IMG/VR virus record: IMGVR_UViG_3300001517_000002 | Coordinates: 49,448-113,447 of that record | DNA length: 64,000 bases | DNA from: a virus | Lineage: Duplodnaviria > Caudoviricetes | Direction: 5' to 3' (one strand) | Part shown: piece after piece, positions 28,285-54,172 of the stretch | How the letters are laid out: each line of letters begins with the position of its first letter | Numbering within the stretch: position 1 is the first letter of the stretch | Notes under the pieces: model-generated | The model's input: only the letters and a program-made list of their open reading frames with translations | What the model was told of the DNA's origin: nothing | The model's database searches: none | Program-made: the position numbers and the translations under genes

Positions 28285-28563
28285 ATGAAAATTATCAGAA
28301 CCATCAACAGGGACAAAGTATACCGTCATTGCAACGAACACGGATATTACACTTGCGGAAATAATAAGGAATATTCTGCAATGCTGGACAAATGCGCAGA
28401 CTATGAACCCATAGAAGCTTCAGACGAGGATATTCTCGCTATTGCTAAAGATATATGGGAACATTCCGATATGTCGGATTTTTTGGCAAGCGGCGGTGAT
28501 TATGAGTGTTTTTTATGGGGAATTTTCAACGAGTGTACACGTTACGAGATTATTTCAGATTAA
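28285..28563 (+). CDS. hypothetical early protein
   Basis: GGAGG RBS. Confidence 0.75.
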   Translation: MKIIRTINRDKVYRHCNEHGYYTCGNNKEYSAMLDKCADYEPIEASDEDILAIAKDIWEHSDMSDFLASGGDYECFLWGIFNECTRYEIISD

Positions 28564-28630
28564 TGCAGAGTAGTCGCCCTAAATAGGGCGATTAATGCAG
28601 CCAGTCAGACGGTTACAAGCCCGTGACTCA
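28564..28630 (+). ncRNA. twister ribozyme, circularly permuted (P5-type layout)
   Basis: GCAGAGT-[AGTCGCCCT/AGGGCGATT]-AATGCAGC-...-ACGG TTACAAG CCCGT matches the twister core. Confidence 0.88.
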
Positions 28631-28666
28631 CTGTAAATTTATGCCTAATTATAGGAGGAAACTGTT

Positions 28667-46938: not shown

Positions 46939-46967
46939 TTGACAAGGTACAAAAAGTATGCTATAAT
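46939..46967 (+). promoter_or_regulatory. sigma-A promoter of the tRNA array with operator boxes
   Basis: TTGACA-17 bp-TATAAT; boxes at 46929(-), 46947 (1 mismatch), 47021 and 47060. Confidence 0.85.
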
Positions 46968-47076: not shown

Positions 47077-47151
47077 TAGGGTATAGCAAAGAGGTAATGC
47101 AACGGGCTTTGACCCCGTAATTCGCCAGTTCAAATCTGGCTGCCCTAACCA
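47077..47151 (+). tRNA. tRNA-Gln(TTG)
   Basis: ACGGG-CT TTG AC-CCCGT; CCA. Confidence 0.88.
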
Positions 47152-47304
47152 TCGTTCCAACAGGTTAAAAGGAAGCCAAAAGCAATGAGCCTGACATCAA
47201 GCTTCGGGGCGAGGCATACGTTCTATAGGGGATAATGTGACAGTGCAAACTCCAATATATGCTTAATGACTCACTGTATGACGGCTCGGAAAGACGAGCA
47301 TAAC

Positions 47305-47364
47305 GACTCACTTGATAATAGACCTCCTCGTGGTGTGAGTTGGGTAACGCTAAGATATTATCAA
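47305..47364 (+). ncRNA. minimal HDV-like (theta-type) ribozyme
   Basis: P1 GACTCAC/GTGAGTT, P2 TTGATAATA/TATTATCAA, P3 ACC/GGT, L3 TCCTCGT, GG, GCTAA with the catalytic C. Confidence 0.85.
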
Positions 47365-47415
47365 ATTTCTTTTACTATTCTTTTTCTGATTGCGGTGAGA
47401 AATCACCGCACAAAT

Positions 47416-47490
47416 GGGAGTGTAGCTCAGTGGTAGAGCAATTGCCTTTTAAGCAATAGGTCGAGGGTTCGATGCCCTTCACTCTCACCA
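47416..47490 (+). tRNA. tRNA-Lys(TTT)
   Basis: ATTGC-CT TTT AA-GCAAT; CCA. Confidence 0.93.
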
Positions 47491-47495
47491 ATTAT

Positions 47496-47581
47496 CTGGA
47501 CGTAGCTCAGTTGGGAGAGCACTACAATAGTTTATGATAGAAATGTAGAGGTCGCTTGTTCAAGCCAAGCCGTTCAGACCA
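47496..47581 (+). tRNA. tRNA-like RNA with a 17-nt anticodon loop (identity undetermined)
   Basis: Acceptor, D and T arms and CCA intact; CTACA-[17 nt]-TGTAG. Confidence 0.75.
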
Positions 47582-47814
47582 AGGGGTTAACCCCCTCATC
47601 AATATATACCATAGATACAAACAACTCTGGCTTCCTCTGAGATGAAGGTTGAAACAATAATGGCGTGGTCGCTTCTTTAGAGATGATATGGCTCAGAAGT
47701 CCTTTGCTTCAGCATAAAAGACCTTAACTAAATGACAATGATATATTGGCGCATTGGGGTTGTGATGATAATAAAGGAGGGAAAACATCACATAGTTTGT
47801 ATCAAAATAAAAAT

Positions 47815-47900: not shown

Positions 47901-48107
47901 ATACTTCAAAAGCGGTGTGGCAACATTATTTAAATAAGGGAAACGATGGGTATACGAAACTTATTTGGTAATGATAAAATGGATAAAATGTAAAGCCATC
48001 AAATCGTTCTTGACTATGGGCAAACCTGTAGAAGTAGCTACCTACGGAAACCAGCAAAAAGAACACAAATCTTGCATAAGTTACACGCTCTTATGCAAGC
48101 AAATCAT

Positions 48108-48184: not shown

Positions 48185-48389
48185 ATTGGATTAAGAAGAT
48201 GCAATATCAAATGAATAGGAATGTATATCGTGGTGGAGGTAGACTGTGGTTTACGCAAAGGACGAGAATTATTTAATTCAATATTTGATAGAGGTGGTTG
48301 CATTGCCTCCGCTTAATCCATTACCAAAATCTTCGTTATGTCTTTGGCATAACTGACCTCCTTCAGCCCGTAGTTGCTACGGGCAATAT

Positions 48390-48605: not shown

Positions 48606-49103
48606 ATGACCAACAATGAAAAGATTCAAAAAGCAGAACAGCTTATCGCAGAAGCTAATGCACTTCTTAATGAAGTTAAATCTACCTATGATAATAAGAA
48701 AGATGTGATTGCTAAGTATAAAGAAGATTATTGTAAAGGTAAGAAATATTATATTAATGATGATAGTAATACCAGTTGGATTGTCACTCCTAATGCGTAT
48801 ACATTTAAAAACACTTCAAATCCTTATAAATTTTATCTTACAGAAGAACTTGCTGAACAGGCAAAGAAACTGAAAGACTTCAATGATAAACTGCTGGCTT
48901 TTAAATATTGTTATGATTTAGATTATAAGCCCAGTTGGGATAACGATTGTCAAAAGTATTATATTTATTATAGTACAGTTGATAACGAATACCACGCTGA
49001 CGGTTTATCTTCTATGCGTGAACCATTAGTTTATTTTAGCACCAAGGAAATCGCACAGAAATGTGCAGACTGGCTTAATTCATTTAAGGAGGTTGAAAGT
49101 TAA
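48606..49103 (+). CDS. hypothetical protein
   Basis: AGGAGGT RBS; VYFSTKEIAQKC. Confidence 0.8.
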   Translation: MTNNEKIQKAEQLIAEANALLNEVKSTYDNKKDVIAKYKEDYCKGKKYYINDDSNTSWIVTPNAYTFKNTSNPYKFYLTEELAEQAKKLKDFNDKLLAFKYCYDLDYKPSWDNDCQKYYIYYSTVDNEYHADGLSSMREPLVYFSTKEIAQKCADWLNSFKEVES

Positions 49104-49107
49104 TCTG

Positions 49108-50205
49108 GTGGCAAACAGAGCGTATAAATTTAGGCTATATCCTAATGAAGAACAAAAGATATTATTTGCCAAAACCTTTGGTTGTGTTAGATTTATCTAC
49201 AATCAAATGCTTTCGGATAAGATAGCACATTATAAAGAAACTGGAACGAAGCTCAACAATACTCCTGCTCAATACAAGAAAGAATTTGAGTGGCTTAAAG
49301 AAGTTGACAGCCTTGCTCTCGCAAACGCACAAATGAATTTACAGACCGCTTATAACAATTTCTTCAGGACACCAAAAGTTGGATTTCCTAAATTCAAGAG
49401 TAAAAAGAGAGACAGGGATAGTTATACTACAAACAATCAAAATGGTACAGTAAGTATTATTGAGAAGAAATTAAGGTTGCCAAAGGTTGGTCTTGTAAAA
49501 ATGGTGCAACACAGAATAATTTCAGACAACGAAAAGATTAAGTCTGCTACAATTACAAGAACACCATCGGGCAAATATTATGTTTCTATTCTTGTGGAAT
49601 ATGATAAGGTTGTTCCCAATGTAGAATTATCAAGGGATAAGGCGATAGGATTAGATTATGCAAGTCATAGCTTTTATGTCGATAGTCAAGGCAGAGAAGC
49701 AGATTATCCCAAATTCTATCGTAAAGCACAAGCTAAACTGGCTCACGAACAGCGCAAACTTGCTAATATGAAGTATGGTAGTAATAACTACTACAAACAG
49801 AAGATTAGGGTTGCGAGAGTTCACGAAAAGGTTGCAAATCAGCGTTTGGATTGGATTCATAAACTCAGTACACAATTAGCAAATGAATACGATATAGTTT
49901 GTGTGGAAGATATAAATATGCAAAATATGGCGAGGTCATTAAAATTAGGAAAGTCAACTAATGACAATGGCTTTGGAATGTTCAGAGATATTCTTTCCTA
50001 CAAACTCACTGACAGAGGAAAAGCATTTGTAAAGATTGATAAGTGGTTTCCGTCAAGCAAGATGTGTAGGCATTGTGGTTCTATCAACCACGAGCTTGCG
50101 CTATCAGACAGAGTTTGGACTTGCAGTTGCGGTACTACAATCAATCGAGATGAAAATGCTGCGATAAACATAATGAACGAAGGTTTGAGAATGTTATTCT
50201 CATAA
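49108..50205 (+). CDS. tnpB: IS200/IS605-family RNA-guided endonuclease TnpB
   Basis: AYKFRLYP HTH; RuvC D (GLDY), E (VEDI), D (RDENAA); CRHC/CSC zinc ribbon; probable GTG start at 49108. Confidence 0.93.
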   Translation: MANRAYKFRLYPNEEQKILFAKTFGCVRFIYNQMLSDKIAHYKETGTKLNNTPAQYKKEFEWLKEVDSLALANAQMNLQTAYNNFFRTPKVGFPKFKSKKRDRDSYTTNNQNGTVSIIEKKLRLPKVGLVKMVQHRIISDNEKIKSATITRTPSGKYYVSILVEYDKVVPNVELSRDKAIGLDYASHSFYVDSQGREADYPKFYRKAQAKLAHEQRKLANMKYGSNNYYKQKIRVARVHEKVANQRLDWIHKLSTQLANEYDIVCVEDINMQNMARSLKLGKSTNDNGFGMFRDILSYKLTDRGKAFVKIDKWFPSSKMCRHCGSINHELALSDRVWTCSCGTTINRDENAAINIMNEGLRMLFS

Positions 50206-53275: not shown

Positions 53276-54172
53276 ATGAATCATAAGAAGTTTATGGATA
53301 TTGAAAGAATCAAGGAAAACATTATAGGTGGATTTGAAGTAGGCAATCATATAGTTATACAGGAGAAGATTGATGGAGCTAATGCAGCTATCAGATATGA
53401 TAGTGAAACAAATACTGTCGTAGCTCAGAGCCGTAAAAATATACTTAATATATCAAACAACCTTAGAGGGTTTTATGAATGGACACAGACACTTAATGCA
53501 GATAAAGTAAGAGAGGTTCTTGGAGATAATCTTATATTGTTTGGAGAATGGCTTGTGCCACATAGCGTTAAATATCCCAATGATAAATATAATCATGCTT
53601 ATTTTTATGATATTTATGATACAGCAACAGAATCTTATCTCGCACAGAATATTGTAAAAGAGAAGGTTGATGCTCTTAGTCTTATTTATGTTCCAGTTTT
53701 TTATGATGGACTGTTTGAATCTTGGGAGCATTGTTATTCATTTGTAGGCAAGACTAAAATGGGTGGCGAATATGGAGAAGGCATTGTAATAAAGAATCAA
53801 ACAAAGCTGAATGACCCCAACTCTCGTACTCCATACTATATTAAAATTGTTGGTGAAAAATTTCAAGAAACTCACGAGCATCATAAAAAGGAAGTTTCAC
53901 CAGAACAAATAAAGGCACTTGAAGAAAATAAAATCCTGTGCGAAACTATTGTTACAGAAGCGAGAGTAACTAAGATACTTCACAAGCTGGTCGATGAAGG
54001 TATTCTTCCTGAGAATTGGGGTGCATCTGAAATGCCAATCGTAGCAAGAAATCTTTGTAAAAGAGTATTTGAGGATTGTCAGAAAGAAGAACCAGAAACA
54101 ACAGCTAAGATTGAAAACTTTGGTAAGGTTGCGAACTCAATTTGTATGAGCATTGCAAGAAAGCTCATATGA
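53276..54172 (+). CDS. RNA ligase (Rnl2-like nucleotidyltransferase)
   Basis: EKIDGAN, FGEW, FYDI, EGIVIK, IK motifs. Confidence 0.85.
   Translation: MNHKKFMDIERIKENIIGGFEVGNHIVIQEKIDGANAAIRYDSETNTVVAQSRKNILNISNNLRGFYEWTQTLNADKVREVLGDNLILFGEWLVPHSVKYPNDKYNHAYFYDIYDTATESYLAQNIVKEKVDALSLIYVPVFYDGLFESWEHCYSFVGKTKMGGEYGEGIVIKNQTKLNDPNSRTPYYIKIVGEKFQETHEHHKKEVSPEQIKALEENKILCETIVTEARVTKILHKLVDEGILPENWGASEMPIVARNLCKRVFEDCQKEEPETTAKIENFGKVANSICMSIARKLI

Follow-up and report, generated by a model that had tools for sequence, protein, structure and literature searches.

Theta ribozymes are minimal HDV-like ribozymes of Caudoviricetes that self-cleave in vitro (four members of the family have been tested) and are killed by a C-to-U change at the catalytic C (Kienbeck et al. 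2024, PMC10879173). The published work explains only the copies that abut a tRNA, and nearly half have no assigned role: the non-tRNA theta ribozymes, which make up 42% of occurrences, are a published category whose role was left open and for which upstream hairpins were not mentioned (PMC10879173). Most of these isolated ribozymes lie more than 200 nt from any ORF (PMC10879173). The locus described here belongs to this known class and is not a new RNA class; what it adds is an informative presence/absence comparison and a conserved partner hairpin.

The locus is located in a 64-kb stretch of DNA, called the window below, which is the right-hand part of an IMG/VR phage record; the record is complete, measures 113,447 bp, and carries direct terminal repeats, and the phage encodes a portal protein and a large terminase (TerL). 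The ribozyme lies on the + strand in a tRNA operon with the order tRNA-Gln, tRNA-Lys, an odd tRNA-like gene, tRNA-Leu, tRNA-Pro and tRNA-Leu, whose inter-tRNA spacers are long (150-230 nt). The operon is preceded by a consensus promoter (Table 1), and no terminator-like site is found on the + strand between this promoter and position 48700. Like the isolated theta ribozymes of Caudoviricetes (PMC10879173), the window's ribozyme has the minimal HDV-like fold, a very short P4, and the same L3 and J4/2 signatures, and it is of phage origin, non-coding, and oriented in the same direction as the neighbouring genes. Unlike them, it belongs to a tRNA operon, at a distance of 153 nt from the preceding tRNA and 111 nt from the following one, and lies between related hairpins, and it is missing from a close relative. 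With the tRNA-associated theta ribozymes (PMC10879173) it shares the ribozyme type and the tRNA-cluster context, and one such ribozyme, directly after a tRNA-Met, has an identical P1. (This example, L136 2074-2130, sits within a large tRNA array on a contig that was binned with a Bacteroides MAG and is otherwise unrelated to this phage.) However, the cut is not within +/-5 nt of a tRNA 3' end. As had been noted originally, the ribozyme is of the theta type and away from any such end, the nearest being 153 nt upstream. In addition, the neighbouring tRNAs encode CCA, which only 4.5% of theta-associated tRNAs do (PMC10879173); since tRNA-Gln encodes its CCA, the ribozyme is not forming a tRNA 3' end here. 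The reading that is favoured below, and that is considered probable, is that an isolated theta-type HDV-like ribozyme within the tRNA-Lys 5' leader, with related leader hairpins on either side, cuts the operon transcript.

Table 1. Features of the theta ribozyme locus and its tRNA operon (positions are those of the window).
Feature	Position	Strand	Description
sigma-70-type consensus promoter of the tRNA operon	46939-46967	+	hexamers 12/12, TG-extended -10
tRNA-Gln(UUG)	47077-47151	+	encoded CCA; 66.1 bits
variable trailer/cassette	47152-47278	+	bulk of the proposed 153-nt RNA; unique to this phage, no excess structure
12-mer	47267-47278	+	sole other genomic copy 28624-28635, abutting a twister ribozyme; core repeats the 5' strand of ribozyme P1; absent from L002
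hairpin module h1	47279-47304	+	TGACG, 5-bp stem 47284-47288/47295-47299, loop GAAAGA, tail ATAAC; identical in L002
predicted cut	between C47304 and G47305	+	5' of G47305
theta-type minimal HDV-like ribozyme	47305-47364	+	Rfam match and fold elements
ribozyme P1	47305-11/47335-41	+	7/7 pairs, first pair G1.U
ribozyme P2 (pseudoknot helix)	47312-20/47356-64	+	9 bp; 7 bp in L002
ribozyme P3	47322-24/47332-34	+	3 bp
ribozyme L3	47325-31	+	UCCUCGU, 7 nt, UCCNCGN type; common to 6/36 family members
ribozyme P1.1	C47326-27/G47342-43	+	CC with GG
ribozyme mini-P4	47344-49	+	about 6 nt
predicted catalytic C	C47350	+	first J4/2 position, in GCUAAGA, UAA next
U-rich linker after ribozyme	47365-47385	+	conserved in L002, absent from G003
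hairpin module h2	47386-47415	+	CTGATT, 7-bp stem 47392-98/47403-09, GAAA loop, tail ACAAAT; ends at the tRNA-Lys RNase P site
tRNA-Lys(UUU)	47416-47490	+	first tRNA 3' of the ribozyme; 72.6 bits

Every element of the nested double pseudoknot can be read in the ribozyme sequence, and the cut and the catalytic C that had been predicted for it agree with a complete minimal HDV-like fold. A permissive Rfam search of 1.8 kb gives as the best match RF02682 (the F. prausnitzii HDV ribozyme, or minimal drz), which aligns at 47305-47362 over the whole length of the model (positions 1-74), including the P1, P3, and J4/2 core, with 29.3 bits and an E of 0.0054. This score does not reach the gathering threshold of the family (44 bits), and the search returns no HDV-like RNA at the curated Rfam threshold; the model expects a longer P4 than the one of about 6 nt that is present here. 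Within the 113-kb genome this is the only convincing match to RF02682, the other one having 8 bits at an E of 5.7. The Rfam model takes no account of P2 in its score, so the 9-bp P2 seen here constitutes independent support for the ribozyme. A comparison set of compact HDV-like ribozymes (n=36) was taken from IMG/VR by pattern and filtered on P1 and P2 pairing. P1 is fully paired across all 36, with 3-6 pair types per position (a result that is partly built into the filter), and every position that is invariant among the 36 is present in the window's ribozyme as in the 35 others. Its first P1 pair, G.U, is the commonest in the sample (24/36), and in P4/J4-2 it has one of the two most frequent strings (each 10/36). 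Judged by these sequence features, the ribozyme is real and probably active. It is not found in the supplementary text of PMC10879173 that was searched.

Tight patterns applied to IMG/VR, JGI metagenomes, and GTDB genomes find one other carrier of this ribozyme, a 32-kb contig (records L002, L005, and L023; L002 below); otherwise they return one unrelated theta ribozyme adjacent to a tRNA-Met and one coding false positive. The copies in the two carriers are 97% identical, with two differences (P4 loop and end of P2), and P2 of L002 contains a C.A mismatch. With only two carriers at this level of identity, there is no covariation within this lineage. The flanks of L002 are 95-97% identical to the window, but from 47104 to 47278 the two are unrelated, and identity resumes at 47279 with h1 and the ribozyme. 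In L002, a 30-nt 5' remnant of the window-type tRNA-Gln is followed by a different tRNA-Gln (58% identical) and then by a 61-nt spacer. A search through the large terminase yields 73 related records, and the 30 longer ones among them contain neither a theta pattern nor a credible RF02682 match. One relative with a complete genome and a TerL identity of 93%, G003, has the same promoter and the same tRNA-Gln remnant, after which come a 213-aa ORF of the HNH endonuclease family (phrog_374, E 5e-38) and then, without a ribozyme, a single hairpin positioned 6 nt 5' of tRNA-Lys. The locus offers a natural comparison, in which nearly identical phages have or lack the ribozyme within one and the same leader. 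The remnants of about 30 nt in G003 (within L215 1637-2408) and L002 (5170-5199) are broken at the same point of the anticodon stem, and to judge from these sequences the remnant site is a hot spot for insertion or replacement. Because three close phages have three different contents, the stretch from the start of tRNA-Gln to the hairpin is a cassette site, of which the novel RNA that had been proposed is the content of one phage. (A neighbouring 337-aa protein has one relative in IMG/VR and none in the genomes searched, and blastn against INPHARED gives matches to tRNAs only.)

Just upstream of the predicted cut lies the GCTCG-GAAAGA-CGAGC hairpin (47284-47299), present as first described and followed by the cut 5 nt later. 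With the rest of h1, it would make up the 3' terminus of the product upstream of the cut. The stem of the G003 hairpin (GCGTG/CACGC) differs from that of h1 (GCTCG/CGAGC) by two double compensatory changes and has the same loop. In addition, h1 and h2 each give a significant alignment with the G003 module, and none of 2000 shuffles reaches either score (for h2, score 26 and 0/2000). Compared directly, h1 and h2 show no significant likeness (p 0.13-0.93), and consequently the relation between them is drawn through the G003 intermediate. The hairpin is kept, with compensatory changes, whether the adjacent cutter is the ribozyme or RNase P. Elsewhere in the operon, stable hairpins at 47392-47409, 48073-48099, and 48367-48384 end 5-8 nt before tRNA-Lys, tRNA-Pro, and tRNA-Leu(CAA), respectively. 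Since hairpins precede tRNA 5' ends as well, the arrangement of hairpin, short single-stranded tail, and cut is the local rule for RNase P and ribozyme alike. (A more distant relative, G004, keeps the hairpin of the tRNA-Leu(CAA) position though no tRNA follows there.) The simplest history suggested by these sequences is an insertion of the ribozyme, together with its U-rich tail, into the tRNA-Lys leader of the lineage of the window and L002, in the course of which a single leader hairpin was duplicated; alternatively, recombination between h1 and h2 could have removed the ribozyme from G003. An element of the IS200/605 type with h1 and h2 as its ends was also considered, and was rejected because the "empty" G003 site still has a hairpin.

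In the favoured reading, transcription of the operon would begin from the promoter at 46939, and the ribozyme would fold once position 47364 has been made and would then cut co-transcriptionally. The upstream piece would contain tRNA-Gln and the variable trailer and would close with h1 and 5 nt, the last of which would bear a 2',3'-cyclic phosphate. The downstream piece would carry a 5'-OH on the folded ribozyme, and its first 111 nt, comprising the ribozyme, the linker, and h2, would be removed by RNase P at 47415/47416. The 153 nt before the cut lie in a cassette site that is prone to recombination and insertion, and h1 would most likely insulate the cutter, be it the ribozyme or the RNase P site, from this variable upstream sequence, or cap the new 3' end, or both. 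An awkward consequence is that exonucleases, in trimming this piece to the CCA of tRNA-Gln, would be hindered by its 3' hairpin.

A different emphasis, which is unlikely, is that the ribozyme mainly serves the downstream RNA, giving tRNA-Lys a shorter leader with a 5'-OH and a compact fold, and thereby shielding the precursor from 5'-end-dependent decay or uncoupling it from the upstream cassette. The insertion does lie within the tRNA-Lys leader, and HDV-type cleavage leaves a 5'-OH (PMC10879173). Uncoupling could be useful because the upstream cassette is highly variable and in G003 contains a mobile HNH gene. However, the whole leader is removed by RNase P anyway, and G003 and 37 other related records get by without the ribozyme (the theta and RF02682 scan covering the 30 longer records).

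The original prediction was concerned with the other side of the cut. It held that positions 47152-47304 form a structured segment of about 150 nt, starting right after tRNA-Gln (which indeed ends at 47151), and that tRNA processing and self-cleavage together define both ends of a novel RNA. The phage T4 tRNA cluster provides a precedent for non-tRNA RNAs made from a phage tRNA precursor, namely the co-transcribed small stable RNAs called species 1 and 2, which are conserved and stable; in contrast, the segment here shows no conservation and no detectable structure. A small RNA of this kind, functional and structured, would have its 5' end made by 3' processing of tRNA-Gln and its 3' end by the ribozyme. 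An endonuclease cutting after the CCA would release it, the hairpin at its end would be protective, and it could be specific to a lineage, with which non-conservation alone is compatible. The four word pairs other than the terminal hairpin that had been named as helices do exist at their places. However, the segment has no excess folding energy (MFE -33.1 kcal/mol vs -32.5 +/- 3.6 for shuffles, z = -0.16), and its complementary 4-, 5-, and 6-mers occur at chance (36 vs 32.6, 10 vs 7.8, and 2 vs 1.6, respectively). Moreover, CAGG/CCTG crosses GAAGC/GCTTC, and GCATA/TATGC crosses ACAGTG/CACTGT, so that one nested fold cannot hold all of them, and none of the four pairs is kept in the nearest relative, L002. 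The Rfam comparison that had been suggested gives the sub-threshold RF02682 match for the ribozyme and, at E up to 10, no match for the spacer.

Conservation likewise speaks against such an RNA. Among 39 records (38 terminase relatives and the L002 contig), there is no homologue of 47152-47278, and L002, the closest relative, replaces everything except the last 26 nt of the 153-nt segment. Within the genome, the spacer has no repeats elsewhere beyond 11-13-mers. It shows no similarity to the HNH cassette of G003 or to the insert of L002, and the idea that it is a leftover of either was dropped. A degenerate tRNA was also rejected: there is no tRNA match at E up to 10, and the geometry of the terminal hairpin (6-nt loop, 5-nt tail) is unsuited, being unlike a T arm plus acceptor strand. 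Nor are the ends well specified. CCA blocks RNase Z, and since tRNA-Gln encodes CCA, a precise cut at 47151/47152 is not expected and the 5' end of the proposed RNA is not sharply defined. A functional small RNA is thus improbable here. The 153 nt before the cut are fast-changing filler rather than a conserved structured RNA, with only the small hairpin conserved. The stretch ahead of the hairpin is without excess structure, unique to this phage, and exchanged for other sequence in the two informative relatives, and the proposed 153-nt ncRNA is best abandoned.

Two smaller features of this segment may be mentioned. Short ORFs end at the same TAA (47301-03), 1 nt before the cut, with 14 codons in the window (47259-47303) and 19 in L002 (5294-5353); they are judged probably to be chance, because they lack a ribosome-binding site and are preceded by different sequences. 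The 12-mer at 47267-47278 and its partner at 28624-28635 give a pairwise E of 0.003. The ribozyme next to the partner is an intercistronic twister-P5 (within 28564-28635, 55.5 bits, above threshold), which begins 1 nt after the stop of the ORF at 28285-28563 and lies 42 nt before the start of the next ORF.

It is similarly improbable that the ribozyme is a neutral passenger or a decaying relic that has neither function nor activity today, for example what is left of a lost tRNA-plus-ribozyme cassette. Such a history would suit its sporadic distribution (2 carriers, and 0/30 related phage records scanned for the motif), the rapid turnover of the site, and the C.A mismatch that P2 of L002 already contains. 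However, all of the catalytic and structural positions are intact in both carriers, P2 still has 7-9 bp, and there is no tRNA remnant before the ribozyme, either as a match at E up to 10 or in the hairpin with its 6-nt loop and 5-nt tail. Finally, it is very improbable that cleavage is switchable or occurs at two sites, with the copy of the P1 5' strand at 47268-47274 competing for the P1 3' strand and either inhibiting the cut or moving it to 47267/47268 with h1 as a J1/2 insert: the same 8-mer does occur at both 47268 and 47305, and long J1/2 inserts are known in HDV-like ribozymes, but the upstream copy is absent from L002, the genome contains the 8-mer 4 times vs 2.5 expected, and folding favours the nearer strand.

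Insight into whether a cut beside a hairpin is peculiar to this locus comes from the other theta ribozymes that lie away from tRNAs. In a first pattern set, about 20 ribozymes abut tRNAs and 13 non-tRNA families were examined; a stable terminal hairpin no more than 6 nt from the cut is present in 10/13 of these families vs 13% of control positions, by a strict criterion that was chosen after this sample had been seen. A second, independent pattern scan gives 57 unique ribozymes, 45 of them adjacent to tRNAs and 12 others. By the same strict criterion, 4/12 of the latter have the hairpin (p 0.057); of these 12, three are in fact tRNA-like and one repeats a locus already sampled. A measure that is free of this criterion is the folding energy of the 40 nt preceding 21 non-tRNA theta ribozymes, the median MFE being -9.9 vs -4.3 kcal/mol in controls (p 3e-6); in the independent sample alone, p is 0.019. 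The tendency toward a stem-loop before non-tRNA theta ribozymes is real but not universal.

At two isolated theta loci in IMG/VR, L052 and L288, the upstream hairpin is repeated in diverged form just 3' of the ribozyme (p 0.016 and 0.002), which resembles h1 and h2. As a general rule, direct repeats flanking isolated theta ribozymes were rejected, since they are significant in only 2/22. ORF stop codons are found 22-39 nt before the cut in several other loci; no enrichment is claimed, given the naive ORF calls and the published distance to ORFs (PMC10879173).

This locus and the stem-loop tendency of isolated theta ribozymes lead to a testable idea, that the ribozyme cuts after an insulating or protective hairpin. 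A tentative extension, put forward as a possibility only, is that stem-loop and theta ribozyme together may be a portable module for forming and insulating RNA ends, which would act beside the tRNA/RNase P punctuation or replace it and would split polycistronic transcripts into hairpin-capped pieces. Related arrangements are found in phage T7, where RNase III processing hairpins stand between the early genes, and in synthetic ribozyme insulators such as RiboJ. As in these systems, a cut beside a stem-loop would divide a polycistronic RNA and leave a hairpin-capped end, or a hairpin would insulate from context; unlike them, with their host enzyme or engineered design, this locus has a naturally occurring HDV-like ribozyme as the cutter and a hairpin whose role is putative. 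Were the extension true, the 42% of theta ribozymes listed as "function unknown" would be explained, and this locus would show gain by insertion between duplicated leader hairpins.

Several other features of the operon and its surroundings deserve mention. The tRNA-like gene at 47496-47581 combines CCA and the complete set of four stems with an anticodon loop of 17 nt. Its stems are kept in L002 (5546-5631) except for one T-arm substitution, and its loop differs there at 3 positions; G004 (L214 1710-1813) has a tRNA-like gene with an insert of about 38 nt at the same place. The 228-nt inter-tRNA spacer that follows (47582-47809) is missing from L002, its 95-97% identical relative, which has 56 nt there instead. 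Just 3' of the tRNA array, at 49063-50205, there is a TnpB-type gene (OrfB_IS605, with Cas12f1-like TNB and HTH domains), which is overlapped by a 165-aa ORF (48606-49103) with no family match. A CCA-adding enzyme (PF01743) is not found in the phage genome. A 298-aa protein (53276-54172) contains an RNA ligase domain (PF09414, 87 bits), together with weak, sub-threshold matches to Rnl2 and DRB0094; RNA ligase is a gene class that is enriched among theta-carrying phages (PMC10879173).
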